A stretch of 64,000 nucleotides of DNA from Clostridiales bacterium. Its GTDB lineage: Bacteria > Bacillota > Clostridia > Saccharofermentanales > DTU023. This document shows, piece by piece, positions 8,293-55,444 of this stretch (positions within the stretch are counted from its first letter, which is position 1; each line of letters opens with the position of its first letter). The position numbers and the translations under genes were made by a program. Location of the stretch: contig JAQYCV010000028.1 of assembly GCA_028724525.1 (NCBI GenBank), positions 2,309 through 66,308 on the forward strand. Reading direction: 5' to 3'. Under the pieces are notes generated by a model. It worked only from the letters and a program-made list of their open reading frames with translations, had not been told where the DNA came from and did no database searches.

Positions 8293-9669
8293 TTATTCCT
8301 CTTCTCTTGACCTATCTCTACTTTGCTTGCCATCTACCTTGAGGTAGTCATCCCGCTTGCGTTCCCGCCAACTAATATAAATGGGGGAGCCCCGGAAGCC
8401 GAAGGCTTCTCGCAAGCGGTTTTCCAAGTAACGTTCGTAAGAGAAGTGTACAAGTTTTTTATCGTTGATAAAGAAGATGAAGTGGGGTGGCCGGCTAGAC
8501 ACCTGGCTGCCATAGAAAATCTTTAGGGCCCGGCCCTTATCACTAGGCGGCCGGTGCATGGCTAGGGCCTCGGCCAGAACTTCATTGACCACAGCTGTAG
8601 ACAAGCGTTTGGCGGATTCTGCATAGGCATCCAAAATCATCTGATAAAGGCCATCTACCCTTTGCCCGGTCAGGGCTGAGATAGCGGTCATATCCGCATA
8701 GGGCATGAAAGCAAAGCGGAGCTTGACTTGGTCGGCCCAAGTCTGAAATTTCTGATCCCGATTCTCCAGCAAGTCCCATTTATTAAGGACAAAGATCGAG
8801 GCCTTGCCCGCGTTATGGGCTAAACCCGCGATTTTCGTATCTTGTTCAGAAATTTCATCTGTAGCATCTAGAAGTATAAGACAAACATCCGCCCGCTCGA
8901 CAGCAGCCTGTGTACGTAAGATGCTGTACTTTTCTATAGCTTCTTTTACCTTAGCCTTGCGCCGGAGGCCGGCCGTATCAATAAAGCGAAAAGATCCATA
9001 GCTATTGTCGACATTCACATCTAAAGAATCCCGGGTTGTACCCGGTATGTCCGAAACAATGGCCCGGTCTTCTGCCAAGAGATTATTGAGCAGGGAGGAC
9101 TTGCCAACATTAGGCTTGCCAATAATAGCCACAGAAATGCGCTCCTGTGTCTCTTCCCTAAAGGAGGCTTGAGGAAGTTGGTCCAGGAGGGCAGAGATCA
9201 TATCGCCCAAGCCCAGCCTATGGAGGGCCGAAACGCAGATGGGCTCACCAAAGCCTAGTTCAAAAAACTCATAGGCTTCAGCTGGCATAGTCCCAACCTG
9301 GTCAGCCTTATTCAGGGCCAGGACAAGGGGCTTGTCAGACTTGCGCAGAAAAGAAGCAATCTCCCGGTCTGTATGGGTCAAACCGTCCTTCAAGTCACAG
9401 AGGAACAAGATAGCATCAGCCGCTTCCAGAGCGAAGCCGACTTGTCGGGTCATCTGCTGGTGTATGGGATCGTCAGAACCAGGCTCAAGGCCTCCGGTAT
9501 CAATCAAGACAAAGGGACGGCCGAACCATTCCGGTTCCGCGTAAATTCGGTCCCGGGTAACCCCTGGACTGTCATGCACAATAGAAATACGCTCCCCTGC
9601 CAGGGCATTAAAAATGCTGGACTTACCCACATTGGGGCGACCAACGATAGCAATTACGGGCTTGGACAT
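8293..9669 (-). CDS. der: Ribosome-assembly GTPase Der/EngA (two G-domains plus KH-like domain)
   Basis: Tandem P-loops GRPNVGKSS and GKPNVGKSS, NKAD/NKWD G4 boxes, and a basic C-terminal tail. Confidence 0.95.
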   Translation of the reverse strand: MSKPVIAIVGRPNVGKSSIFNALAGERISIVHDSPGVTRDRIYAEPEWFGRPFVLIDTGGLEPGSDDPIHQQMTRQVGFALEAADAILFLCDLKDGLTHTDREIASFLRKSDKPLVLALNKADQVGTMPAEAYEFFELGFGEPICVSALHRLGLGDMISALLDQLPQASFREETQERISVAIIGKPNVGKSSLLNNLLAEDRAIVSDIPGTTRDSLDVNVDNSYGSFRFIDTAGLRRKAKVKEAIEKYSILRTQAAVERADVCLILLDATDEISEQDTKIAGLAHNAGKASIFVLNKWDLLENRDQKFQTWADQVKLRFAFMPYADMTAISALTGQRVDGLYQMILDAYAESAKRLSTAVVNEVLAEALAMHRPPSDKGRALKIFYGSQVSSRPPHFIFFINDKKLVHFSYERYLENRLREAFGFRGSPIYISWRERKRDDYLKVDGKQSRDRSREEE

Positions 9670-9745
9670 GCTTTACCTCATCACGTAAAAAAGCAGCCGG
9701 ACAAGTCGCCCCGCTGCTCATGCTCACTTAAAAAGACCTGGAGGC

Positions 9746-9931
9746 CTAGGCCTCTTTGTCAATGGCTACGACTTCTCTTCCCTTGTAGTAACCACAGTTT
9801 TTGCAGACTACGTGGGGGAGCTTAAGTTCGTGGCATTGAGGGCATTCGGAAAGATTAACCGAGCTAAGCTTTTCCTGGGCGCGAGACATCCGAGATCTGC
9901 GTTTTGACCATTTTCTCTTAGGTACTGCCAT
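9746..9931 (-). CDS. rpmF: 50S ribosomal protein L32 (zinc-ribbon C+ form)
   Basis: MAVPKRKWSKRRSRMSRAQ... followed by CPQC...CKNCG. Confidence 0.95.
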   Translation of the reverse strand: MAVPKRKWSKRRSRMSRAQEKLSSVNLSECPQCHELKLPHVVCKNCGYYKGREVVAIDKEA

Positions 9932-10140
9932 GTTTCTGCCTCCCTTTATCTAAATATGCTTATTGCACTTCGCTAAACAGCGTCTCTCTTTACTAGAGTG
10001 TTACTAAAACAGCGTTAGTGATTATCTCACGGCCATTCCAGCCTGTCAAGGGCCTCAGGGTCGAGCTGACGCATTTGGTTAAAGTGAGACCTATATAAGG
10101 TATACTAAGTTCACATTTGTGAAAGCTATAGGAGTACCCC

Positions 10141-12039
10141 GTGCTAGACTTTGCCAGAATGCATACCCAGGCCTTTAATGATCAATATGCCTACCAGGGG
10201 CCTTTGGGCATGTGCTACAGCCCAGACCATACCACATTTCGTCTGTGGTCACCTACTGCAAGCCGCGTCCAAGTGAGTCTAGGTCAAGGACAAAAGTGGC
10301 TCCTTGACTTGCAGGCCGATAGTCAACATCCTGGACTTTGGTTTTTAGATCTCCAGGGTAATTTTTATTTACATGATTATAACTATCTTCTGACCTTCCC
10401 AGATGGAAGCGTACATGAAACGCCCGACCCCTATGCAGTCGCCGCCAGGGCTAATGGTAAGCCCTCCGTCATTCTTGACCCCCTAGCCATTAGTCCTCCA
10501 GGCTGGTCTGAAGAAGATTGGCCGGCTCCGCTAGACCAGGGCCGGCTAGCAATTTGCGAAATTCACATCCGAGACCTGACCATTGGCCCTGACAACGGTA
10601 TTTTCCACAAGGGCAAGTTTTTAGGCTTGACGGAGCCGGATACCCAGACAGATCAAGGGCACTTGTCTGGTCTGGCTTATTTAAAATCCCTAGGAGTCAG
10701 CCATATTCAGCTTATGCCCTGTTTTGACTTTGCTTCTGTGGACGAGGCTGGCGATCTCAGCTTTAATGCCCAGTACAACTGGGGCTATGATCCAGAAAAC
10801 TATAATGTTGTAGAAGGCTCCTATGCCAGCCAGCCAGATGATCCTTCCTGCCGAATTCTAGAATTTAAGACCCTGGTGCAAACTCTGCACCAAGCAGGCT
10901 TCCAAGTCATCATGGATGTGGTCTACAACCATGTTTACAAGCTCGAGGAGTCCCCCCTCCATTTGACAGTCCCGGGTTACTACTTTCGCGTCCAAGACAA
11001 TGGCGTGTTTTATGACGGTACGGGTTGCGGCAACGAAACTGCATCTGAGCAAATCATGTTCCGCAAGTATATGATTGATTCCCTTTGCTACTGGGCTCAG
11101 ACCTATCATATTGACGGCTTCCGTTTTGACTTGATGGGCATCCATGATGTAGAGACCATGCAGGCTGTACGGCAAGCACTGGAAGCAATCAATCCTCATA
11201 TCCTCCTGCTAGGCGAAGGCTGGCAGATGGGCCACCATCCCTCAGGCGTTTTAGGGGCTAACCAAAGCCAGGCCAAGAAGCTCCCCGGCTTTCGTTTCTT
11301 TAATGACCAAATGCGGGATGCCTTACGGGGATCCAATTTTGGTCACCAGGCCAAAGGCTGGATCAATGGGGACACAAGCTTGGAAAAAACTCAGCAGGTC
11401 TACCACAATATTCTTGGTCAGCCGGACCATGGCTCCTACCTAGACGCCAGCCAATCTGTCATTTATACCGAGTGCCATGACAATGCCACCCTCTATGATA
11501 AGCTGGTCCAGACCTTGCCTGGTATCAGCCAAGAAGAAGCGGTCAAGCGGCAGGCTCTGGCCTTGTCTATCCAATGTTTTTCCTTCGGGACCCTCTTTTT
11601 CCATGCTGGCCAAGAAATGATGCGGACAAAGGGAGGAGACAGCAATAGTTATCAGTCTCCCGACAGCATCAATGCTTTGGACTATGACCGGGCTGGGCAA
11701 TATCCAGCATTAGGCCAGCTCTTCCGCCGCCTTTTAGAAATGCGGAGCGCCATGGGCGTTTTTTCCCTCACGTCCTACCAAGAGATCGCCCAAGCAGTGG
11801 AGCTTTATCGGCTTGAAGAGGGGTGTATTGCCTACAAGCTCAAATATGGAGGACAAGTTTATCTGGTCGCCCAAAATGCCTGCACTAGCCCCTGGCAACT
11901 TGACCTGCCAGCAGGAGAATGGCAGCCCCTCCTCACCCAATGGACTTTGCCGGAAGAGCCAGGCCAAGCCTTCTCCCCTGTTAGGGATCAATTGGCAGTA
12001 GAGGGATTAGAATCTATCCTGGTCCAGCAAATCGCTTGA
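10141..12039 (+). CDS. pulA: Type I pullulanase / debranching enzyme (GH13 with N-terminal CBM48-like region)
   Basis: GH13 regions VIMDVVYNH, DGFRFDLMG, LLGEGW and YTECHDN. GTG start with AGGAG 6 nt upstream. An in-frame ATG at 10159 is an alternative start. Confidence 0.85.
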   Translation: MLDFARMHTQAFNDQYAYQGPLGMCYSPDHTTFRLWSPTASRVQVSLGQGQKWLLDLQADSQHPGLWFLDLQGNFYLHDYNYLLTFPDGSVHETPDPYAVAARANGKPSVILDPLAISPPGWSEEDWPAPLDQGRLAICEIHIRDLTIGPDNGIFHKGKFLGLTEPDTQTDQGHLSGLAYLKSLGVSHIQLMPCFDFASVDEAGDLSFNAQYNWGYDPENYNVVEGSYASQPDDPSCRILEFKTLVQTLHQAGFQVIMDVVYNHVYKLEESPLHLTVPGYYFRVQDNGVFYDGTGCGNETASEQIMFRKYMIDSLCYWAQTYHIDGFRFDLMGIHDVETMQAVRQALEAINPHILLLGEGWQMGHHPSGVLGANQSQAKKLPGFRFFNDQMRDALRGSNFGHQAKGWINGDTSLEKTQQVYHNILGQPDHGSYLDASQSVIYTECHDNATLYDKLVQTLPGISQEEAVKRQALALSIQCFSFGTLFFHAGQEMMRTKGGDSNSYQSPDSINALDYDRAGQYPALGQLFRRLLEMRSAMGVFSLTSYQEIAQAVELYRLEEGCIAYKLKYGGQVYLVAQNACTSPWQLDLPAGEWQPLLTQWTLPEEPGQAFSPVRDQLAVEGLESILVQQIA

Positions 12040-47461: not shown

Positions 47462-47495
47462 TATAAAAGAGGCCAGCTCCTAAGAACTGGCCTCT
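47462..47495 (-). terminator. Intrinsic terminator ending the sugar operon
   Basis: AGAGGCCAG-N10-CTGGCCTCT stem, followed on the minus strand by TTTTATAG. Confidence 0.7.
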
Positions 47496-47521: not shown

Positions 47522-48589
47522 TTAGTCTTCAAATTGGTCAACGTTGTCTTTGGTTACAACGGTAACACCCGTGTCAACCTGGGTTTCTTCAAGCTTTTCG
47601 CCTTCTAGAACCTTAACAGCAGCTTCGATAGATTTTTCGCCCATAATGTTGGGGTTCTGAGCCATGAAAGCCAGGAGCTCGCCATCTTTAATGTGGGCGC
47701 GGTTAGAGCTAGAGTTATCAAAACCAACGGCCAGAATGTTCTTCCCATTCGCATTGGCTTCCTTAACTGCGTTGGCCATACCATTCGTTGCGCCGTCATT
47801 TGCACCATAGAGAGCAACAACACCATCGTTGATCAGAGCGGCGGCCTGGTCTTGAGCCTTAGCAGCATCACCGTCAGAGTATTGGACTTCGCCCAGCTCA
47901 TAGGGGGTTCCGTCAAAGGCCTTAATGAAGCCATCTACACGGTCGATGCAGGATTGTACGCCAGCCTGGGCAGAGACGATCCCGATTTTGCCTTCTTTAA
48001 TTTGCGCAGCCTCAAGCTCTTCCAGCAATTTCTTGCCAGCGGCTTCACCAGCGGCAAAGTTATCAGTAGCAAAAGTGGCGGAAGCTTCAACTGTAGCAGG
48101 AGAGTCAACGTAGATTAACTTGATGCCCTTGTCTAAGGCCTCTTTGAGGACATCATTTGCGGCTGTAGAGTCATTGCAGGAGATAATAATGACATTAGCG
48201 CCATCGTTAATCGCTGTTTCAATCATCTGAATCTGTTGGGCGTTGTCTTTCTTTTCAGGAGCCAGCCATTTGTAGTTAATCTTTTTGCCTGCGGCAGTCA
48301 GTTCATCTACCTTGGCTTTAGCAGCTTTTTCTAGCTTTACCCAGTGCACATCCATCTGGTCCATAGTGATAAGATGAATATTCATTTCGGCATCTGCGGC
48401 AGGTTCTTTAGCCTCATCTGCCTTGGATTCTTCAGCTTTCTTTTCTTCTGTTTTTTCTTCCTTCTGTTCTTCTTGCTTTTTTTCAGCAGCAGGTGCTTCT
48501 GTGGCTTTTTCTTTGTTAGCTGCAGGAGCGCAAGCAGCCAGGCTGAACATCAAAGCAGCAACAAGAAGGACAATTGAAAATTTTTTCAT
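47522..48589 (-). CDS. CUT2 (ribose-type) sugar ABC transporter substrate-binding lipoprotein
   Basis: The signal peptide plus lipobox is MKKFSIVLLVAALMFSLAAC, followed by a ~45-aa E/K-rich linker and a type I periplasmic-binding fold (RbsB/AlsB-like). ATG 48589 (AAAGGA 7 nt upstream) is preferred over 48637. Confidence 0.85.
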   Translation of the reverse strand: MKKFSIVLLVAALMFSLAACAPAANKEKATEAPAAEKKQEEQKEEKTEEKKAEESKADEAKEPAADAEMNIHLITMDQMDVHWVKLEKAAKAKVDELTAAGKKINYKWLAPEKKDNAQQIQMIETAINDGANVIIISCNDSTAANDVLKEALDKGIKLIYVDSPATVEASATFATDNFAAGEAAGKKLLEELEAAQIKEGKIGIVSAQAGVQSCIDRVDGFIKAFDGTPYELGEVQYSDGDAAKAQDQAAALINDGVVALYGANDGATNGMANAVKEANANGKNILAVGFDNSSSNRAHIKDGELLAFMAQNPNIMGEKSIEAAVKVLEGEKLEETQVDTGVTVVTKDNVDQFED

Positions 48590-48670
48590 ACTGTTTTCCT
48601 TTCTCAGATGTGGGCTTTTGGCGCCCCTCATCTTCATGAATCGGTTTTCACCGTTTTCACCTTACTTGCC

Positions 48671-48697
48671 GAGTAAAATATATACCATATTTTACTC
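48671..48697 (-). other. AT-rich 11-bp perfect hairpin between the permease and binding-protein genes
   Basis: GAGTAAAATAT-N5-ATATTTTACTC lies immediately after the permease stop. There is no U-tract, so it is probably a processing, stability or partial-termination element. Confidence 0.5.
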
Positions 48698-48702
48698 TAA
48701 AT

Positions 48703-49701
48703 CTAAGATATTTTCTTGGCTTTTGGCGACCTGCGACGCAAGACATCAAAGAGCACACAAGCCACTACAATAATACCAATAATAATATTTCTCAGGGCTA
48801 CAGGTACACCTGCAAAGGTCAGGCCGCTTTGCAGAATGGCCCATACAGAGGCACCCGCAATAACACCTGGCAGAAGTCCGCTACCGCCCAAGGTAGAAAC
48901 ACCGCCGATAACTGCAGCCGCGACTGCGTACATTTCGTAACTCATACCCGCACTCATGTCGCCCATGCCGGACTGGGCCATAGTGATAAGGCCCGTTAAG
49001 CCTGAACAAAGAGCGGATACCAAGTAAACCTTAGAAATTGTCTTAAAAATATCCACGCCTGACAGACGTGCCGCGTCAACGTTGGAGCCTACAGCATAAA
49101 TATGACGGCCACTCCGGGTGTAAGTCAGTATATAGAAAAAGATAAACCAGACCAGAAGAGCCAACCATACCACAGTGTAGATGCCAAGGAATTTACCGTA
49201 ATAAAAAAGGTTTTTAAAGGCTTGGGCAGGGCCTTCTGATCCAATATTATCCGTATTGTAGTTACCATTCACCCACTGGGCGACACCACGTGCAATGGTC
49301 ATAGTTCCTAAGGTTGCAATGAAGGGGGGCAATTTAAATTTTCCAACTAAAACACCGTTAATCACACCTACGATCATACTGGCAATCATAGCCACTAAGG
49401 CAGCTACGATAGGATGAACGCTTTTGGTCATTAAGGTCGCAGAAATCATGGCGCTCATCCCGACAACTGATCCGATGGAAAGATCAATGTTGCCGGTAAT
49501 ACATACATAAGCTTGGCCAATTCCCACTAATAGGAAAGGCACCACACTCCGCATGAGCGTAGTAAGACTAGACCATTTAAAGAAGTTCGGATTGATCACA
49601 CTAAAGATGATCATTAATATCAAAACACCCACATAAGCGGTAATAACCGAGGCCACTCCCGGCTTTGCCAAAATGCTCTTATTGTTACATTTATTTTCCA
49701 T
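48703..49701 (-). CDS. CUT2 sugar ABC transporter permease (RbsC/AlsC-like)
   Basis: 332 aa with ~10 TM helices and a GNIDLSIGS motif. Confidence 0.9.
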   Translation of the reverse strand: MENKCNNKSILAKPGVASVITAYVGVLILMIIFSVINPNFFKWSSLTTLMRSVVPFLLVGIGQAYVCITGNIDLSIGSVVGMSAMISATLMTKSVHPIVAALVAMIASMIVGVINGVLVGKFKLPPFIATLGTMTIARGVAQWVNGNYNTDNIGSEGPAQAFKNLFYYGKFLGIYTVVWLALLVWFIFFYILTYTRSGRHIYAVGSNVDAARLSGVDIFKTISKVYLVSALCSGLTGLITMAQSGMGDMSAGMSYEMYAVAAAVIGGVSTLGGSGLLPGVIAGASVWAILQSGLTFAGVPVALRNIIIGIIVVACVLFDVLRRRSPKAKKIS

Positions 49702-49714
49702 ATGTCACCACTCC

Positions 49715-51220
49715 CTATTCATTTAGGCCAAATTTCGTAGCGTAGGTCATGATTTCTTCCTCAGAGGTCTTTGCCGGATCTACTTCTCCCGTGATGCGAC
49801 CATTACACATAACCAAGATGCGATCCGCTATGCCCATTATTTCTGGTAATTCACTAGAGACAATAATCACTGCAACCCCTGAGCGTTTGAGCTGGTTGAT
49901 GAGTTGATAAATTTCAACTTTAGCCGCGACATCAATGCCACGTGTAGGCTCATCAAAGATGATCACCTGCGAATTGCGTGCCAGCCACTTTGCTACCACA
50001 ACCTTTTGCTGATTACCTCCTGAAAGACTTGACGCAGCCGTATCCGCGCTAGACATACGAATGGACAAGCCGTCTTTACTCTTATCCACCAGTTTTCTTT
50101 CTTTATTCTTACTGACTCGGCCAATGGCCTCAAGCAACAAATCTAAGTTTGGCAGAGCGATATTCTCTCGAATGGAAAGCTTGGTGCATAGGCCATCACG
50201 CTTACGATCTTCCGGCACAAGGACCAAATGGTTATTAATTGCATCCTGGGGAGACTTAAACTCCACAGTTTTGTCATTCAAAATAATTTCGCCAGAATCA
50301 ATAGGATCTGCGCCAAAAATCGCCCGCATAGTTTCCGTTCGGCCAGCGCCGACTAATCCCGCAAAACCCAAGGCTTCACCAGCATAGGCTTTGAAAGAAA
50401 CATCCCGAACTTGGCGGCCAGCCTTTAGATTTTTGACCTCGAGCTTCAGATCTCCACGTTGTCCAGGCTCACGAGGATATTTCTCTTTAATCTCATGACC
50501 TACCATGTTGCGGATGATTTCTTCCATACTAAAGTCCTGGAAAGCACCCTCTGTGATGTAGTGTCCATCCCGCATAATGGTCACCCGGTCCACAATGTGA
50601 TGCAGTTCCTCCAAACGGTGGGAAATATAAATGATGGCTACTCCCTGCTTTCGCAGCTCTTTCACCACCCGAAACATTTCCGTGATTTCAACATCTGAAA
50701 GTGAAGAGGAAGGCTCATCCATCACAAGAATCTTGGCATTTACAAGAAGGGCCTTGGCTATCTCCACCATCTGCTGTCGTCCTACGGATAGGGATCCCAC
50801 TAGCTGATGAGGATTCATATCCGTGATACCAAGCTTGGCAAGCTGCTCCAGGGCAAGGCGATCCATGCTAGCGCGATCAAGCCGTCCATTCTTTGTTATT
50901 TCCCGGGCGAGAAATATATTGTCAGTGACCGAAAGATCCTTACACATGTTGAGTTCTTGGTGAATAATCGCTACCCCAAGATCTTGGGCTTCACGCGTGT
51001 TGAGATCGCCCTCAATTTTTTTGCCTAGGATCTCAAGATCACCGCTGTCTCTCGTATATACGCCGGAGAGAATCTTGACGAGCGTGGATTTACCCGCGCC
51101 ATTTTCTCCCAGCAGGGCCATGACTTCACCGGGACGAACGTGTAGCTGTACATCATCCAGTGCCTTCACCCCAGGAAAGGTCTTATAAATATGATCCATG
51201 GAAACGGCAAATTCACTCAT
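49715..51220 (-). CDS. CUT2 sugar ABC transporter ATPase (fused double NBD, RbsA/AlsA-like)
   Basis: GENGAGKST Walker A, LSVGRQQ/LSGGNQQ signatures, and two NBDs. ATG 51220 (GGAGGG 6 nt upstream) is preferred over 51277, which would overlap the upstream gene. Confidence 0.9.
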   Translation of the reverse strand: MSEFAVSMDHIYKTFPGVKALDDVQLHVRPGEVMALLGENGAGKSTLVKILSGVYTRDSGDLEILGKKIEGDLNTREAQDLGVAIIHQELNMCKDLSVTDNIFLAREITKNGRLDRASMDRLALEQLAKLGITDMNPHQLVGSLSVGRQQMVEIAKALLVNAKILVMDEPSSSLSDVEITEMFRVVKELRKQGVAIIYISHRLEELHHIVDRVTIMRDGHYITEGAFQDFSMEEIIRNMVGHEIKEKYPREPGQRGDLKLEVKNLKAGRQVRDVSFKAYAGEALGFAGLVGAGRTETMRAIFGADPIDSGEIILNDKTVEFKSPQDAINNHLVLVPEDRKRDGLCTKLSIRENIALPNLDLLLEAIGRVSKNKERKLVDKSKDGLSIRMSSADTAASSLSGGNQQKVVVAKWLARNSQVIIFDEPTRGIDVAAKVEIYQLINQLKRSGVAVIIVSSELPEIMGIADRILVMCNGRITGEVDPAKTSEEEIMTYATKFGLNE

Positions 51221-51249
51221 CGTCGTCCCTCCTTCCTCCTCGTCCTTGA

Positions 51250-51930
51250 TTAGTCCGTTTGAGGATACTCGTTGCAAAGCAAACGGTAGGCAGGCTCATC
51301 TTCCTCAATTTTGGGGAAGCGTCCCAGAGGCTTGTAAAAGCGGTTATCATTATTGTCATCATTACACATAGAAACTTCGCCGATAATGGCATAGGAAGAG
51401 CCGGGCGCCACAAAAAACTCATGGTACAGATAAGGATAAAGTGTCAGACTCTCTCCAGGCTTTAGCAGAAGGTCTTTGCCCGAAGGATAAGTAAATTTCC
51501 GTCCATCCTTATAAAGGACAACGTCATCATCTTTAAGTTCACCATCTTTTGTTGCATTCCAGAGACGGAAGATTAAATCACCGCCTCCCCGGTTGATGAT
51601 GTCTTCCATCTTGAGCCAATGAAAATGATTGGGGGAAACTTGTCCTGCCTTGAGCATCATAATTTTTTCTGCATAGGTCTTTTTATACTTGGGGTTGTTA
51701 ACATTCCCATTGCGCAGAGTAATGAGGGCCAAACCAGTGGTCGAAAAATCCCCAAGGCCATAGTCAGTGACATCCCAACCCAAGGCATTATCCCTGATTT
51801 CATCATACTCATGATTCTTTTCTCGCCACTCTTCAGGCGTAAAATGTAAAAAAGGCGGCAGATAGAACTGATGTTTTTCGAGTTTCTCTTCAAAATCTCT
51901 TATAATTGCATTAATTTCTGAACGTTTCAT
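51250..51930 (-). CDS. D-lyxose/D-mannose ketol-isomerase-like cupin
   Basis: 226 aa with KTYAEKIMMLKAGQVSPNHFHWLKMEDIINRGGG and a C-terminal EVSMCNDDNNDNRF, matching the YdaE/Z5688 D-lyxose isomerase family pattern (metal ligands HxH...E...H). Confidence 0.8.
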   Translation of the reverse strand: MKRSEINAIIRDFEEKLEKHQFYLPPFLHFTPEEWREKNHEYDEIRDNALGWDVTDYGLGDFSTTGLALITLRNGNVNNPKYKKTYAEKIMMLKAGQVSPNHFHWLKMEDIINRGGGDLIFRLWNATKDGELKDDDVVLYKDGRKFTYPSGKDLLLKPGESLTLYPYLYHEFFVAPGSSYAIIGEVSMCNDDNNDNRFYKPLGRFPKIEEDEPAYRLLCNEYPQTD

Positions 51931-51947
51931 AATCTTCTCCTTAATTT

Positions 51948-53015
51948 TTATAATGTATCAAGATGTTTTGACAAACATTGATCAATAACAGCACACGTCG
52001 CTTGGAAGTCTTTCGCTCCTTCAAGTACGGTAAAACGTAAGATGTTTTCTTCAGATTGTCCTGGTAAAAGCGTGTGCAAATTCCCAGACTCTATCTCATG
52101 TGCACGTCCATAGGGGCCACTATTTGTTGGCTCAAAAGCTAGAACATAATCTCCCGAGGCCAAAGATTTCCATTGCATAAATTTTGGTAGATTCGTGGCA
52201 GAATAACGGATTTCCAGGCCTAATTCCAGCTCATGATTATAAATAGCACATGTCACCATATTTTGAGGGTCTGCGGCAACTTCATGCAGGAATACATATT
52301 CTGGCTCTCCCGGGCTAGGAGCTTCCATCCTTGACCAATGGGCTTCCGCAAACTTAGTTGTCTCATCGCGCACACGTACAGCATAAGAAGGAATGGCTAT
52401 CTCACATGCCTCATCTAAAAAAGGAAAGCCAAAATTGATGTGGTACAACATCATAAGACCCTCCTCTCGAAAGCCTTGGTTTTCAATTCTATCGTGCAAG
52501 ACAAATGACTTTGACCCATAGACAGTTGTCACAGTCCGTCGCATGACCAAATTTTCTCCAAAGAGACTAGCTTCTCGCATTTGGCCACTGGCCTCTAGAA
52601 TGTAGGCATTATCCTGCCAATAGGCGGCGTAGCTCAAGTTTTCAGCTACTTGATTCCGCATTCTACCATGCATGGGATAAGTCACATCAGCCAGCTGACA
52701 AGGTGGACAAGTATTCGTGAGGCCAGAGGTGAAAAGCAAGCCCCCCATGACGCTACGAACCGCTTCCTGGCCCTTCCCATCTTGGGATTCACGTGCTAGC
52801 AAACCCGGTTTTGCTAGAAAATTAAAATTTTGGCCTTTATAGGAAAAGTCCGCTATATCCAGAGCTTTATCTGCCAGCAGGCTTAAACGCATCGGCCCAT
52901 TAAGCAATTCCAGAGCTCTAAGGCCCCTAGCCGGGCCAGATTCATGGCTTACCAAGCGAAGGGAGGCTAACTGGTCCATATGACCTACACGCGATAAAAG
53001 ATCCGCTTTGTTCAT
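51948..53015 (-). CDS. Aldose 1-epimerase-fold protein (DUF4432-like)
   Basis: 355 aa. The N-terminal segment LASLRLVSHESGPARGLRALELLNGPMRLSLLADKALDIADFSYKGQNF and the overall beta-rich composition resemble the DUF4432 / galactose-mutarotase-like superfamily. The family call is from memory only. Confidence 0.55.
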   Translation of the reverse strand: MNKADLLSRVGHMDQLASLRLVSHESGPARGLRALELLNGPMRLSLLADKALDIADFSYKGQNFNFLAKPGLLARESQDGKGQEAVRSVMGGLLFTSGLTNTCPPCQLADVTYPMHGRMRNQVAENLSYAAYWQDNAYILEASGQMREASLFGENLVMRRTVTTVYGSKSFVLHDRIENQGFREEGLMMLYHINFGFPFLDEACEIAIPSYAVRVRDETTKFAEAHWSRMEAPSPGEPEYVFLHEVAADPQNMVTCAIYNHELELGLEIRYSATNLPKFMQWKSLASGDYVLAFEPTNSGPYGRAHEIESGNLHTLLPGQSEENILRFTVLEGAKDFQATCAVIDQCLSKHLDTL

Positions 53016-53021
53016 GGGCAG

Positions 53022-53594
53022 CTACTCCAGATTGGCGTGATACTGCCAAAGAGATTTCATATCAATTTCGTATTCTTCTAGCAAGAGCTTAGCCAAAATA
53101 TCCCCCAAGAGCAATAAGCATTGTTCAAAGAGTGAGGTCATAGGTTGGATCGAAGCCACCTCATCTGGCAGGTAAAGTTTTGTCTGCACCGGTATCCTCA
53201 GCATCCAATCTGCAAATTCCCTCATGGGGCTATTAGGATTAGACCCAATGTGAATGATCGTGCAGTCTACTGTTTCACGGGCTTTACGCGCGATAGCCAG
53301 GGGAAAAAGCGAGGAACCAGAGCCAGAGCCCACGATGAGGAGATCCTCCTTTTTGATCGCAGGTTCGGTGATATCACCAACACAATGCGCTTGAATGCCC
53401 AGATGGGCTAGACGTTTGCAGACCATTTGCAAGGCCAGCATGACACGTCCAACACCAACAAAGAAGACCTGATCTGCCTCCCGGATAGCTCTGGCCGTTC
53501 TTGCCAGTTGATCAGCATCCACCGCTTGTAAGGCGGTCATGATTTCCTCTAAGACTCTTGCACAAGTAGGTAGATAATTATCTTCTATACTCAT
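53022..53594 (-). CDS. SIS-domain sugar-phosphate isomerase, 6-phospho-3-hexuloisomerase (HxlB/PHI) family
   Basis: 190 aa. FFVGVGRVM...LLIVGSGSGSS and the C-terminal SIQPMTSLFEQCLLLLGD...YHANLE closely parallel B. subtilis HxlB (TIQPMGSLFEQTLLL...HHANLE). Confidence 0.8.
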   Translation of the reverse strand: MSIEDNYLPTCARVLEEIMTALQAVDADQLARTARAIREADQVFFVGVGRVMLALQMVCKRLAHLGIQAHCVGDITEPAIKKEDLLIVGSGSGSSLFPLAIARKARETVDCTIIHIGSNPNSPMREFADWMLRIPVQTKLYLPDEVASIQPMTSLFEQCLLLLGDILAKLLLEEYEIDMKSLWQYHANLE

Positions 53595-54316
53595 TTGCTT
53601 TCCTCAATAATTTTCTTTCTCAAAGCCTGAAGATCCGCCAAACTTTCCCGCAATTCTCCACGGCGCAAGCAGGTACTGCCAACGACAAAGCTATCTACTG
53701 TGCCCGCTCCGTAGCGTCTAATATCTGCTTGAGCAATACGGCCATCTATAGCAATTTCTGTTTTCAAGCCGCGTTCCGTAATCATTTGGCGCAAGTCTAA
53801 AATTTTTCTTTCCGCATACCCGACCTGGGCTTCCCCCCGCATAAAGGCATAACCAGGGTTGATCAGCATTAACAAAACGCTGTCACACATGTCCAAAACA
53901 TAGGATAAGATAGAAAGGTCCGTCGCGGGTTTAAGGGCCAAACCGGCTCTCACACCATGCGCGTGGATGCGTTTTAACATACCATCTATATGTGGTTCAG
54001 TCTCAGCATGGACCACAATCTGCTGAACACCTATATCTAAGAGTTCATCCACAAAATAATCATTGGCAGTCGTCATTACATGGCATTCAAAGGGGAGGTC
54101 AGTCTTAGCCCGCAATTGGCGTACAGCATCTAAGCCCAGAGGCATGCTAGGGCTAAAATGGCCATCTAAAATATCCACATGGATTTGGCCAATCCCCGCC
54201 TCTTCTAGCACGGACACATCCCTTTCCAGGTTGCATAAATCCAGGCAAATTAAAGAAGGCGAAAGACGGCAGGGTTTACTCCACCAATCAGTTTTAGCAG
54301 AAACTAAATCAGCCAT
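53591..54316 (-). CDS. Ribulose-phosphate 3-epimerase-family enzyme, AlsE-like (second RPE paralog in the window)
   Basis: SPSLICLDL...HVDILDGHFSPSMPLG...LMLINPGY...DGRI motifs. It is clearly diverged from the housekeeping rpe at 22773-23507. Confidence 0.8.
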   Translation of the reverse strand: MADLVSAKTDWWSKPCRLSPSLICLDLCNLERDVSVLEEAGIGQIHVDILDGHFSPSMPLGLDAVRQLRAKTDLPFECHVMTTANDYFVDELLDIGVQQIVVHAETEPHIDGMLKRIHAHGVRAGLALKPATDLSILSYVLDMCDSVLLMLINPGYAFMRGEAQVGYAERKILDLRQMITERGLKTEIAIDGRIAQADIRRYGAGTVDSFVVGSTCLRRGELRESLADLQALRKKIIEESK

Positions 54317-55250
54317 TTAAGTTCTCCAAGCTAGCAACAATTTGTGATCGGTCTGGTAAAGCAGAAATAGCGCCCTTTGTTTGCACACATAGCCAGCCAG
54401 AAGCATTGCCATAGGCTAGTGCTTGCTGGATCATCTCTTGGCTAAGATCTTCAGCTTTTCCTAAGCCTTGATCCAATAAAGAAGAGAGAAAAGCCCCCCA
54501 AAAAGCATCGCCCGCAGCTGTAGTATCGACAGGCTTAGCGGGATGACTAGGGGCCTCAATAATGATATCTTTCCAAAAAGCCCTCGCGCCAGCTGCGCCC
54601 AAAGTTTCCACAAGCAGATGTATCCCCTGACGTTTCATCCAGGTAGGAAGGTCCCTTTCCTCGGTGACAAACATAGTCACTTCTTCTTCTGACATCTTTA
54701 CCATATCGACATAGGAGAGCAGGGATTCCACAGCAGAAACACATGCGGCAGGCCTATCCCACATGACATCACGATAATTAACATCAAAGCTAGTCAGCAA
54801 GTGATGTTCACGGCCAAGACGTAAGGCTTTTCTTGTCGCTTCCGCCGCGGGAGAAACCGAAAGGGAGCAAGAGCCGGCATGGACAATACGTGATTGGGCG
54901 ATATCCGCCTCGCGCACATCTGCCTCATCTATATAGCGGTCTGCTCCAGGCTTACGCGCAAAGGTAAAGGAACGCTCGCCATCCTGTAAACTCACAAATG
55001 CCATTGTGGTGGTTGCATGAGAAATTCGCTCAGGCTTAATAATCTGGACTCTATTCTCCTTTAAAGTTCGATGAATAAATTTCCCAAAGGTATCCTCGCC
55101 CACTGCGCAACACATGGCGGCTTCATAACCATTCCGAGATAGCTCAATCGCGACATTAGCAGGAGCTCCACCAGCACTATAAATATAGCTCATGGGTTCA
55201 TGACCAGGTATAAAATCGATCACCATCTCACCTATACAATAGATATCCAT
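54309..55250 (-). CDS. PfkB-family carbohydrate kinase (fructokinase-like)
   Basis: MDIYCIGEMVIDFIP, GGAPANVA, and the C-terminal DTTAAGDAF anion-hole/catalytic Asp motif. Confidence 0.85.
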   Translation of the reverse strand: MDIYCIGEMVIDFIPGHEPMSYIYSAGGAPANVAIELSRNGYEAAMCCAVGEDTFGKFIHRTLKENRVQIIKPERISHATTTMAFVSLQDGERSFTFARKPGADRYIDEADVREADIAQSRIVHAGSCSLSVSPAAEATRKALRLGREHHLLTSFDVNYRDVMWDRPAACVSAVESLLSYVDMVKMSEEEVTMFVTEERDLPTWMKRQGIHLLVETLGAAGARAFWKDIIIEAPSHPAKPVDTTAAGDAFWGAFLSSLLDQGLGKAEDLSQEMIQQALAYGNASGWLCVQTKGAISALPDRSQIVASLENLNG

Positions 55251-55310
55251 ATCTTTTCCACATAGACTTAATATGCTAATTACCGAGTTTTTATCGTTAA
55301 TCGCTTGTAT

Positions 55311-55339
55311 ATTTTAGCGTTTTTAACAAATTGGGTCAA
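55311..55339 (-). promoter_or_regulatory. Strong sigma-A-type promoter of the sugar operon
   Basis: Minus strand reads TTGACC-17 nt-TAAAAT, ~60 nt upstream of the kinase ATG. Confidence 0.55.
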
Positions 55340-55411
55340 CAAATAACGTAGCTTGCTGGTGGCGCGATGGAAATATAAGCAAACTCTAGGGAGGTGACTT
55401 ATTTTTGCAGG

Positions 55412-55444
55412 AGCAAAAGTAAAGGCCGCCCTCTCGGGCGGCCT
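55412..55444 (-). terminator. Intrinsic terminator (distal) after ispH-rpsA
   Basis: AGGCCGCCC-TCTC-GGGCGGCCT stem, followed on the minus strand by TTTACTTTTG. Confidence 0.6.

Follow-up and report, generated by a model that had tools for sequence, protein, structure and literature searches.

The window, as the whole stretch of 64,000 nucleotides analyzed here is called, contains an eight-gene sugar operon that is a widely conserved cassette, common to many gut Clostridia and not a one-off. Its combination of enzymes fits no described pathway. As originally predicted, no textbook route uses it; no description of the eight-gene set was found in the literature, and the PGAP names are generic only. 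Tentatively, and with a chance somewhat short of even, a D-mannose/D-lyxose-type aldose may be imported, anomerized, isomerized and phosphorylated, with the epimerase and the SIS isomerase forming a pentose-phosphate module centered on ribulose-5-P (Ru5P).

Eight open reading frames, all on the minus strand, run from 55250 to 47522. Pfam and NCBIfam profile annotation confirmed the eight gene identities that had been assigned in the original prediction, and the gene coordinates also stood, except for two start codons. The ATPase most likely begins at ATG 51220, not TTG 51277, and the sugar-binding lipoprotein (SBP) most likely at 48589 (MKKF); both starts were revised because gene callers chose them on identical contigs. 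Translation from MKKF places an LAAC lipobox in the SBP.

Table 1. Genes and transcription signals of the operon, in the order of transcription.
Feature	Coordinates	Strand	Support
sigma-70-type promoter, TTGACC-17 nt-TAAAAT	55311..55339	-	top promoter-like match in the region, 10/12
PfkB-family sugar kinase, 313 aa, fructokinase-like	54309..55250	-	Pfam PfkB 162.9 bits
divergent ribulose-phosphate-3-epimerase-family protein, 241 aa	53591..54316	-	Pfam Ribul_P_3_epim 158.2 bits
PHI-like single-SIS-domain isomerase, 190 aa, HxlB paralogue	53022..53594	-	TIGR03127 HxlB 162.1 bits, cut-off 160
DUF4432 protein, 355 aa, galactose-mutarotase-like fold	51948..53015	-	Pfam 279.7 bits
D-lyxose/D-mannose-isomerase-type cupin, 226 aa	51250..51930	-	Pfam Lyx_isomer 320.8 bits, full length
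CUT2 ABC transporter ATPase, 501 aa from ATG 51220	49715..51220	-	two ABC_tran domains
CUT2 ABC permease, 332 aa, RbsC/AlsC-like	48703..49701	-	BPD_transp_2 139.6 bits
sugar-binding lipoprotein (SBP), 355 aa, long Lys/Glu/Ala-rich linker	47522..48589	-	Peripla_BP_4 173.2 bits
intrinsic terminator	47462..47495	-	12-bp GC-rich hairpin then UUUUAU

The eight genes are predicted to be a single operon transcribed from one promoter. There is an 8-nt overlap between the kinase and epimerase genes and a 4-nt overlap between the epimerase gene and that of the SIS protein; the gaps that follow are 6 nt (SIS to DUF4432), 17 nt (DUF4432 to cupin), 29 nt (cupin to ATPase), 13 nt (ATPase to permease) and about 113 nt (permease to SBP). 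That one promoter and one terminator bracket the genes, as first proposed, was borne out by the promoter match and by folding of the hairpin. Both promoter hexamers are kept in the relative L003 (73% identical), and the adjacent intergenic DNA has diverged. The terminator hairpin has a dG of -25.1 kcal/mol (z = -3.73), and none of 200 shuffles folds equally well. This site was read from the sequence by eye and then folded; it is missing from the output of the terminator scan, which permits loops of 3-8 nt, probably because the apical region is long, as read by eye. The flanks are housekeeping genes, an ispH-rpsA fusion upstream and rpsB-tsf-pyrH-frr-uppS-cdsA-dxr downstream.

The ATPase of the importer is RbsA/XylG/AraG/AlsA-like (517-564 bits) and misses every equivalog cut-off. 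Among solved relatives, 4WUT matches the SBP best (114 bits); the similarity of the SBP to AlsB, to RbsB and to the EcN SBP is weak in each case. The top NCBIfam match of the kinase is fructokinase NF006957, at 198.6 bits and under the cut-off of 450, and its top PDB match is the Vibrio fructokinase 5EY7 (137.9 bits). It scores 94 bits with the NCBIfam TagKinase model and is 29% identical to the EcN tagatose kinase.

The cupin is 48% identical to E. coli O157 Z5688 (PDB 3KMH; 228 bits) and keeps the motifs HFHWxKMEDIINRGGG, YHEF and GEVSMCNDD. The known substrates of its family are aldoses with the manno configuration at C2/C3. D-lyxose has been reported as the preferred substrate among characterized members, and the active site in a lyxose isomerase crystal structure contains β-D-mannopyranose and β-D-fructofuranose (PMC8378251). 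These ring-form sugars provide a rationale for a mutarotase. In Foldseek, an AF2 model of the DUF4432 protein (pLDDT 81) matches 3TY1 with a TM score of 0.80 and GalM mutarotases with about 0.6.

The epimerase falls under two cut-offs, that of rpe (TIGR01163, 162.9 against 212.6 bits) and that of AlsE (NF007266, 134.5 against 271). Its H/D/D/H/D active-site pattern is intact. Three residues are inserted in the β6 loop of the subfamily (NPGYAFxKGE), and DGR replaces DGG. By score, true RPE is a slightly nearer relative of the protein than AlsE is (PDB, 124.7 against 99.9 bits; K-12 proteins, 118 against 110 bits). The SIS protein matches B. subtilis YckF/HxlB (1M3S) with 95 bits and is 34-38% identical to the canonical HxlB genes that share operons with it in relatives. 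It carries the subfamily-specific changes GRVM for GRSG, SGSGGS for SGSGET and IPVRTK for VPAPTP, and it retains the C-terminal HANLE.

The gene arrangement is far beyond chance, since the five-enzyme block is complete in 43 of 80 related genome loci and all eight genes occur in identical order in 21 of the 80. Oscillospiraceae, Lachnospiraceae, Synergistales and Pleomorphomonas bear the cassette. In about 21 orthologous loci a Mlc/NagC-like ROK regulator lies upstream; tblastn found no homologue of it in the whole 64-kb window, and L003 likewise has none upstream. The operon is thus regulator-less in the window, as had been noted, but this is not a general trait.

DUF4432-cupin pairs lacking the kinase, epimerase and SIS genes were found in 19 loci. 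The pairs examined adjoin GH2 β-mannosidase, GH38 α-mannosidase and oligosaccharide CUT1 ABC genes, and in another group of loci DUF4432 follows a GH125 α-mannosidase. Such neighbors link DUF4432 and the cupin to mannose. In a Blautia-type version an XylB-equivalog kinase (448 bits, cut-off 380) lies directly upstream of the block from kinase to cupin. This xylulokinase is rare (two of the 43 five-enzyme loci, plus two metagenome contigs); the window and most relatives have the fructokinase-like PfkB as their only kinase. Together with the D-lyxose preference of the cupin family, the xylulokinase points to a pentulose.

The original prediction had noted that hexulose-phosphate synthase is absent. 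This is true of the window; canonical HxlA and HxlB do, however, lie in or beside the cassette in eight related loci, which belong to Oscillospiraceae and Pleomorphomonas (two phyla; HxlA 247-258 bits, cut-off 200; HxlB 234 bits, cut-off 160). They are additional to the PHI-like gene and do not replace it. A canonical HxlB and the PHI-like gene in the same operons imply that the latter encodes a paralogue with a different job, presumably not the conversion of Hu6P to F6P. The epimerase and SIS genes also form a stand-alone bicistronic operon (orthologues 66% and 68% identical) with its own TTGACA-17-TATAAT promoter and terminator, located after thyA-folA-pyrimidine-nucleoside phosphorylase, and a second stand-alone pair is present at another locus. 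Because the pair occurs alone, its substrates must be common metabolites. In four loci an E. coli-Nissle-like tagatose cluster, with a TagK-like kinase (37% identity) and/or a class II aldolase (about 40%), a CUT2 ABC and a ROK kinase, lies beside the cassette or its DUF4432 gene.

The mannosidases, the true xylulokinase and the stand-alone epimerase-SIS operons are the reasons for preferring a role in D-mannose/D-lyxose and pentose-phosphate metabolism. A free aldose of this type would enter through the CUT2 importer and its lipoprotein receptor. DUF4432 would provide the anomer or ring form needed by the cupin, which would convert D-mannose to D-fructose and/or D-lyxose to D-xylulose, and the PfkB kinase would phosphorylate the ketose. 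The epimerase would interconvert xylulose-5-P and ribulose-5-P, and the SIS enzyme would link ribulose-5-P reversibly to an aldopentose-5-P, of which ribose-5-P would be the most useful. The two would form a portable module that balances the kinase product between the pentose-phosphate and hexose-phosphate pools. Ru5P is placed at the hub because HxlA, HxlB, an RPE and a Ru5P isomerase all converge on it, and in relatives with HxlA and HxlB this node would be tied directly to fructose-6-P. In the present genome the operon would be expressed without the ROK repressor gene that precedes it in many relatives. The most likely candidate substrates are D-mannose, the most available in the gut, and D-lyxose, the best fit to the enzyme chemistry. 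The route first proposed, from aldose to ketose, to ketose-6-P and, by 3-epimerization and/or 2,3-isomerization, to fructose-6-P, had named allose, allulose and talose beside mannose; the genomic contexts point instead to mannose or lyxose.

The PHI reaction shifts the carbonyl one carbon further from the phosphate, which on Ru5P is an aldose-ketose isomerization, and the SIS-family KdsD catalyzes the conversion of Ru5P to arabinose-5-P. Against the Ru5P module, canonical PHI stereochemistry would yield arabinose-5-P, not ribose-5-P, and no enzyme of the PHI type is known to act as a ribose-5-P isomerase. The altered cap loop of the epimerase and the Gly-to-Arg change in DGG after the catalytic Asp suggest that its substrate is not simply Ru5P. 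D-lyxose is scarce in nature, and if D-mannose is the substrate, fructose-6-P needs no extra enzymes and the constant epimerase and SIS genes are weakly explained.

A plain D-mannose operon, leading through fructose to fructose-6-P with the RPE-like and SIS genes as dispensable passengers, would be of a known pathway type (mannose isomerase plus fructokinase) and agrees with the fructokinase-like kinase and the mannosidase neighbors. It is improbable nonetheless: the supposed passengers are 57-88% identical across three phyla, retain their catalytic motifs, overlap or abut their neighbors and are present in 43 of 43 five-enzyme cassettes. Very doubtful is an allose-type system, in which D-allose/D-allulose would reach fructose-6-P through allulose-6-P, the RPE-like protein acting as AlsE and the SIS protein replacing RpiB as allose-6-P isomerase. 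A CUT2 transporter together with an RPE-family gene does recall alsBAC-alsE, the AlsE model gives 134.5 bits, and the window proteins are 41% (AlsA), 32% (AlsC), 29% (AlsB) and 30% (AlsE) identical to the E. coli system. The resemblance to the D-allose system seen earlier is a generic likeness of this kind, however, since the transporter is equally similar to ribose, xylose, Nissle-tagatose and O157 systems. AlsE, AlsA, AlsC and AlsB are all far under their equivalog cut-offs, and ROK allokinase, RpiB and RpiR/AlsR are lacking. The cupin, found in all 43 cassettes, would by the known substrates of its family be unable to turn allose into allulose, and a ketose kinase would yield allulose-6-P directly, leaving the SIS enzyme without a role. 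With every als-specific feature failing, the allose-like substrate first put forward is a weak lead.

The main rival reading, itself unlikely, is that the operon channels tagatose-6-P or allulose-6-P to fructose-6-P via 3-hexulose-6-P. Here the kinase would make a non-fructose ketohexose-6-P, either D-allulose-6-P or D-tagatose-6-P, the latter derived from D-tagatose taken up as such or from D-talose isomerized by the cupin. The PHI-like enzyme would shift the carbonyl to C3, the RPE-like enzyme would epimerize C4 of 3-hexulose-6-P, the exact analogue of C3 in ribulose-5-P, and PHI activity, from HxlB or the same PHI-like enzyme, would complete the route; a canonical HxlB adjoining the cassette would perform that final step. 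If true, tagatose-6-P would have a third outlet, in addition to the routes through tagatose-bisphosphate aldolase and through tagatose-6-P 4-epimerase. DUF4432 occurs together with CUT2 ABC and PfkB kinase genes in the D-tagatose cluster of E. coli Nissle, which has been validated experimentally (PMC9720028), and the DUF4432 gene there is 33% identical to that of the window. This membership and the four loci with Nissle-like neighbors favor a ketohexose. The homologous cupin of E. coli O157 is grouped with PfkB kinase and ketose-bisphosphate aldolase genes, and the constant company of the five enzymes suggests that the pathway is linear and that the kinase does not itself produce fructose-6-P. 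The altered part of the epimerase is the cap loop, whereas AlsE differs elsewhere, its lengthened loop reportedly being the β8 phosphate loop. On the other side, no such enzyme activity is known, D-talose is very rare, and in loci with a tag-like cluster the pathway would duplicate the aldolase route. HxlA and the true xylulokinase of the Blautia version are left unexplained, the fructokinase model gives the kinase a better score than the tagatose-kinase model does (198.6 versus 94 bits), and the lone epimerase-SIS pair near nucleotide and housekeeping genes is hard to square with a rare-sugar intermediate.

The operon consists of eight genes on the minus strand of the window, all lying within 47522-55339. 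Profile annotation with Pfam and NCBIfam confirmed the eight gene identities of the original prediction (table). Overlaps of a few bases join the kinase, epimerase and SIS genes, and the gaps that follow are 6-29 nt. The highest-ranked promoter-like site of the region is TTGACC-17-TAAAAT (55339-55311). Both its -35 and -10 hexamers are kept in the closest relative, which is 73% identical and carries the operon at the identical genomic site, while the remaining intergenic DNA has diverged. A terminator 3' of the binding-protein gene has a folding energy of -25.1 kcal/mol (z = -3.7). All flanking genes are housekeeping genes, an ispH-rpsA fusion upstream and rpsB-tsf-pyrH-frr-uppS-cdsA-dxr downstream. 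The ispH-rpsA gene ends in its own GC-rich terminator hairpin, AGGCCGCCC-GAGA-GGGCGGCCT (55423-55444), followed by a 10-nt inverted repeat (55399-55422). The sugar operon thus starts at its own promoter and not by read-through. The sole inverted repeat near that promoter is the one adjoining the upstream terminator. An Rfam scan of the window gave no matches, and so no leader or riboswitch, and a tRNA scan gave none. A cre-like sequence with one mismatch, TGAAAACGGTGAAA, lies on the minus strand between the permease and binding-protein genes (48646-48659); two cre boxes were found window-wide against 2.0 expected, which is not above chance, so this one carries no weight alone. Public annotation gives the window proteins, which come from the metagenome-assembled genome of an uncultured Eubacteriales/Clostridiales bacterium (proteins MDD7401761-68), generic names only.

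Genes of the sugar operon, with their positions in the window
Feature	Position	Strand	Basis
PfkB kinase	54309-55250	-	Pfam/NCBIfam
RPE-family protein	53591-54316	-	Pfam/NCBIfam
PHI-like SIS protein	53022-53594	-	TIGR03127, 162.1 bits vs cut-off 160
DUF4432	51948-53015	-	Pfam
Lyx_isomer cupin	51250-51930	-	Pfam, 320.8 bits
CUT2 ABC ATPase	49715-51220	-	Pfam/NCBIfam
CUT2 permease	48703-49701	-	Pfam/NCBIfam
Binding lipoprotein	47522-48589	-	lipobox LAAC

Related loci were collected by a scan with a DUF4432 alignment, one genome per species, which gave 80 loci. Their gene content was determined by tblastn with the eight window proteins; simple ORF calls gave antisense ORFs in high-GC loci, and the counts are therefore based on tblastn. 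The five enzymes occur together in 43 of the 80 loci and the full set of eight in identical order in 21, and cassette-bearing loci show 47-97% identity to the window proteins. The operon is thus not a singular assembly. It is carried by Oscillospiraceae, Lachnospiraceae, other Clostridia, Synergistales and, with another gene order, the alphaproteobacterium Pleomorphomonas, and is widespread among the Clostridia of gut and rumen. Blautia ammoniilytica, Oscillospiraceae 50-16 and Pleomorphomonas carboxyditropha / sp. NRK KF1 are cultured organisms that carry it. About 21 loci have an upstream ROK-family gene whose product aligns end to end with regulators of the Mlc/NagC type. No homologue of this regulator was found by tblastn in the window, and the closest relative also lacks it. 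As predicted, no regulator lies in or next to the window operon, but "regulator-less" describes this lineage and not the system. The prediction that no known pathway uses this combination of genes held in full-text literature searches, which gave no description of the gene set; a paper on AlsE in the gut (PMC12216980) concerns a different operon. In two loci a LacZ-type GH2 beta-galactosidase gene lies directly 3' of the cassette (L017, 15775-18771; L021, 11977-14982). Another has a second, truncated cupin copy of 58% identity past a tagatose-like cluster (L035, 13939-14223).

The cupin matches the whole Lyx_isomer model (PF07385, positions 1-222 of 222). It is 48% identical (228 bits) to the D-lyxose isomerase Z5688 of E. 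coli O157:H7 (3KMH) and keeps the metal-binding motifs HxH...E and YH. With the Gram-negative equivalog NF051472 it scores 270.9 bits, short of the cut-off of 350. These similarities make it a putative isomerase of the D-lyxose/D-mannose-isomerase family. The AF2 model of the DUF4432 protein (pLDDT 81, pTM 0.85) matched 3TY1 with a TM score of 0.80 (E 2.5e-24) and B. subtilis GalM with 0.60 in Foldseek, predicting a mutarotase-like beta-sandwich fold. The fold is assigned by structure prediction since hhalign of the DUF4432 profile with E. coli GalM gave no alignable similarity. Residues H116, H192 and E295 are invariant in the family alignment.

The DUF4432 and cupin genes also occur as a pair without the kinase, epimerase and SIS genes in 19 loci. 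In those examined, the neighbors are a GH2 beta-mannosidase, a GH38 alpha-mannosidase, a CUT1 oligosaccharide ABC transporter and a histidine kinase/AraC-type response regulator pair. In another group of loci DUF4432 lies 3' of a GH125 alpha-mannosidase. These mannosidase contexts link both DUF4432 and the cupin with free mannose. Cassette and mannosidase-linked cupins differ at two places next to the metal ligands (SPNHFH vs APMHFH and YHEF vs YHDF). The crystal structure of a lyxose isomerase contains beta-D-mannopyranose and beta-D-fructofuranose (PMC8378251), which gives an anomerase a clear use. In several Lachnospiraceae a GH125 mannosidase-DUF4432 pair is inserted immediately 3' of the housekeeping genes rlmN-PP2C-PknB-rsgA-rpe-thiN, with a two-component system and a sugar-binding protein downstream (L081, 2524-11050; also L027, L043 and L073).

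By its profile scores the kinase is fructokinase-like, but below every equivalog cut-off. Its top model, fructokinase NF006957, gives 198.6 bits against a cut-off of 450. On the tagatose kinase model NF049991 (TagKinase, cut-off 420) it scores 94 bits, whereas the kinase of the D-tagatose cluster of E. coli Nissle 1917, to which it is 29% identical, scores 413. In the Blautia-type version of the cassette, a second kinase directly upstream of the five enzyme genes passes the XylB (xylulokinase) equivalog with 448 against a cut-off of 380; kinase-DUF4432 pairs occur on their own in some Blautia. The transporter falls far below the cut-offs of the AlsB (70.6 vs 335), AlsA (517.5 vs 772) and AlsC (168.5 vs 396) models, and ribose and xylose transporter models score at least as high as these als models. 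Comparison of the binding protein with solved structures gave no decisive ligand clue, the top match being 4WUT (114 bits) and the matches to AlsB, RbsB and a tagatose-binding homologue being weak. Its lipobox is followed by a low-complexity linker, rich in Lys, Glu and Ala and about 60 residues long, which accounts for a spurious Pfam "Conotoxin" match. The likely start of the protein, MKKF, lies 16 codons inside the longest ORF (47522-48637).

The epimerase scores 162.9 bits with the rpe equivalog TIGR01163 (cut-off 212.6) and 134.5 with NF007266, the equivalog of AlsE, D-allulose-6-P 3-epimerase (cut-off 271). Its identity to K-12 AlsE (30%) is no higher than that to K-12 Rpe, and a similarity comparison places it slightly nearer Rpe. 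The housekeeping Rpe of relatives scores 264 bits with the Pfam model and the window epimerase 158. Alignment with E. coli Rpe and AlsE showed that the metal-binding and catalytic His/Asp residues are kept (HVDILDGH, CHVM, IDGR). The canonical NPGFGGQ loop is lacking; in the beta6 loop, the active-site cap in RPE structures, three residues are inserted, and the protein has DGR for DGG. The length of the beta8 loop, GSTCL vs GTSGLF and GSAIF, is ambiguous as a mark of AlsE-like or Rpe-like epimerases.

The SIS protein passes the PHI model only marginally, compared with 234 bits for canonical HxlB, and is 34-38% identical to the canonical HxlB encoded in the same operons of relatives. Its subfamily has GRVM for the PHI motif GRSG and SGSG(G/S)S for SGSGET, and VPAPTP is also altered; the C-terminal HANLE and QPMxxLFEQ motifs are kept. 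The low identity to the co-resident HxlB, together with the differing invariant motifs, indicates that the SIS protein is an HxlB paralogue, probably with a different job. The original prediction had noted that hexulose-phosphate synthase (HxlA) is absent. This is true of the window, where tblastn found none, but canonical HxlA (247-258 bits vs 200) and HxlB (234 vs 160) are physically attached to the cassette in eight related loci from two phyla. The HxlA of these relatives brings its own canonical HxlB besides the PHI-like paralogue, and in one locus (L007) the two genes are the final two of a ten-gene operon. HxlA and HxlB are a formaldehyde-linked enzyme pair. Strictly anaerobic Oscillospiraceae as well as Pleomorphomonas have canonical hxlB-hxlA genes of the RuMP pathway attached to the cassette (L007, 15503-16729; L098, 2477-3683; L079, 2954-4329).

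The epimerase and SIS genes also occur as a stand-alone bicistron (66% and 68% identity) with its own promoter, TTGACA-17-TATAAT, and terminator, located after thyA-folA-pyrimidine nucleoside phosphorylase (L090-L093; in L090 the rpe-like gene is at 9297-9995 and sis at 10001-10576). A second stand-alone pair follows a resolvase gene (L099, 6297-7576). A search with the SIS paralogue gave 2,988 clusters of proteins at E <= 1e-10, among which there may be canonical PHIs. Some of the clusters nearest to the query are each present on dozens of contigs, and the best 120 of the 2,988 contain no gene fusions.

Several known systems resemble parts of the operon. The D-tagatose cluster of Nissle (ECOLIN_RS18670-18695) has been validated experimentally, with a CUT2 ABC transporter, a PfkB tagatose kinase and a tagatose-bisphosphate aldolase (PMC9720028). 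Like the window, it has CUT2 ABC, PfkB kinase and DUF4432 genes in one operon, with identities of 33% over 345 residues for DUF4432, 40% for the ATPase and 33% for the permease. Its DUF4432 protein scores 347 bits with the DUF4432 model and is annotated "aldose 1-epimerase family", a putative role (PMC9720028). Unlike the window operon, it uses the aldolase together with the host PfkA, has an adjacent DeoR regulator and lacks cupin, RPE-family and SIS genes; the window has no aldolase. A Nissle-like tag cluster adjoins the cassette or its DUF4432 gene in four loci. The Z5688/ECs_5070 cluster of O157:H7 likewise has a homologous cupin, a PfkB-family kinase and a CUT2 ABC transporter, but it differs in having a ketose-1,6-bisphosphate aldolase (NF005284, 580 bits) and a two-component system and in lacking RPE, SIS and DUF4432 genes. 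To our knowledge the cupin is the sole characterized member of this cluster. When E. coli genomes were searched directly at the DNA level with the cupin-ATPase region, rbsA alone matched, and the O157 and Nissle loci were taken by coordinates.

The K-12 D-allose system, alsRBACEK plus rpiB, has a CUT2 importer, an RPE-family epimerase, a sugar-phosphate isomerase and a kinase. It is like the window operon in logic only, that is import, phosphorylation and isomerization/epimerization to a central sugar phosphate. It has a ROK kinase in place of PfkB, RpiB in place of a PHI-type SIS isomerase and an RpiR-type repressor where the window operon has no regulator, and it lacks the cupin and DUF4432; the als-specific AlsK, RpiB-type isomerase and AlsR were not found in the window operon. 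The RuMP pair HxlA/HxlB includes a relative of the SIS protein with shared C-terminal motifs, but the window has no synthase. The routes from D-lyxose through D-xylulose to Xu5P, and from mannose by mannose isomerase and fructokinase, have a similar front end, a free-aldose isomerase followed by a ketose kinase, but no dedicated mutarotase-fold protein or epimerase/SIS pair. Lyxose isomerases are reported to feed the pentose phosphate pathway (PMC8378251). None of the Nissle, O157, als and RuMP systems holds the gene combination of the window.

Since the operon has no oxidoreductase, aldolase or hydrolase gene, it must convert its substrate to a singly phosphorylated isomer. The sequence-supported parts are an importer, a mutarotase-fold protein, an aldose-ketose isomerase, a kinase and two enzymes of sugar-phosphate isomerase/epimerase type. 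The originally predicted route, from a rare hexose through a C6-phosphorylated ketose to F6P, is one possibility among several and not the best supported. The reading tentatively preferred here, though it falls somewhat short of probable, has a front end that would take a D-mannose/D-lyxose-type aldose and an epimerase-SIS pair that would act as a Ru5P-centered module interconverting Xu5P, Ru5P and an aldopentose-5-P. Only the Ru5P reading explains the stand-alone pairs by nucleoside/nucleotide genes, the xylulokinase and the occurrence of HxlA together with HxlB; Ru5P is where all of these meet. It is also chemically natural, as the PHI reaction on Ru5P is an aldose-ketose isomerization; KdsD, of the SIS family, carries out such an isomerization on Ru5P. 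Its weak points are that we know of no precedent for a PHI-type ribose-5-P isomerase, that D-lyxose is rare, that mannose requires no epimerase-SIS module and that the xylulokinase is found in only a minority of cassettes. The altered cap loop of the epimerase, moreover, hints at a non-standard substrate.

The main alternative, which explains the tagatose-cluster contexts and the HxlB linkage, is a ketohexose-6-P funnel. In it tagatose-6-P or allulose-6-P would have its carbonyl moved to C3 by the SIS protein, the resulting 3-hexulose-6-P would undergo inversion at C4 by the epimerase, and a PHI activity would yield F6P. The C4 of 3-hexulose-6-P is the exact analogue of the C3 of Ru5P. The funnel leaves the stand-alone pairs, HxlA and the xylulokinase unexplained and is judged unlikely. 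An allose-like pathway is very improbable, as every als-specific comparison went against it. It is also quite improbable that this is a plain mannose operon with passenger epimerase and SIS genes, a proposal that is hard to reconcile with the strict conservation of the two. Routes for heptoses, L-sorbose/L-gulose, L-ribose, hamamelose, 1,5-anhydrofructose and Amadori compounds were set aside because oxidoreductase or deglycase genes are absent or because they need C5/C6 inversions beyond these enzyme types.

The operon is of a known kind, binding-protein-dependent and for sugar catabolism, and contains two enzyme subfamilies without assigned specificity and one DUF. It is conceivable, if doubtful, that the RPE-like and SIS proteins form an unrecognized, horizontally mobile two-gene module for sugar-phosphate interconversion, with DUF4432 as a missing mutarotase, in a new catabolic route widespread among gut Clostridia. 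The SIS protein would then represent a new isomerase. It might be a ribose-5-phosphate isomerase of a third, non-homologous type, or it might act on ketohexose-6-P/3-hexulose-6-P and, together with a 3-hexulose-6-P 4-epimerase, turn tagatose-6-P into F6P. DUF4432 would be a mutarotase for mannose/lyxose or for ketohexoses. Assignment of the substrate would give functions to three little-understood protein groups, DUF4432, a divergent RPE subfamily and a PHI paralogue working without HPS, and would show by what means gut anaerobes exploit free mannose-type or rare sugars. The sugars concerned include those freed from host and dietary mannosides as well as D-tagatose and D-allulose, which are food sweeteners. 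If the SIS protein is a new ribose-5-P isomerase type or a partner in 3-hexulose-phosphate epimerization, this would be a new activity in central sugar-phosphate chemistry and could serve rare-sugar biocatalysis. If the operon only converts mannose to F6P, two of its genes are accessory and it is an ordinary operon of sugar catabolism.

Comparison of the E. coli loci showed that the interval between yjcS and yjdP holds the Z5688 cluster in O157 (L083, Sakai 5159700-5168850) and alsK-alsE-alsCAB-alsR-rpiB in K-12 (L084, 4306870-4313799). In the O157 island the genes for the cupin, a PfkB kinase and a ketose-bisphosphate aldolase are accompanied by those for a CUT2 ABC transporter, a response regulator and a histidine kinase. 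The O157 Z5688 and K-12 als islands are alternative occupants of one site.
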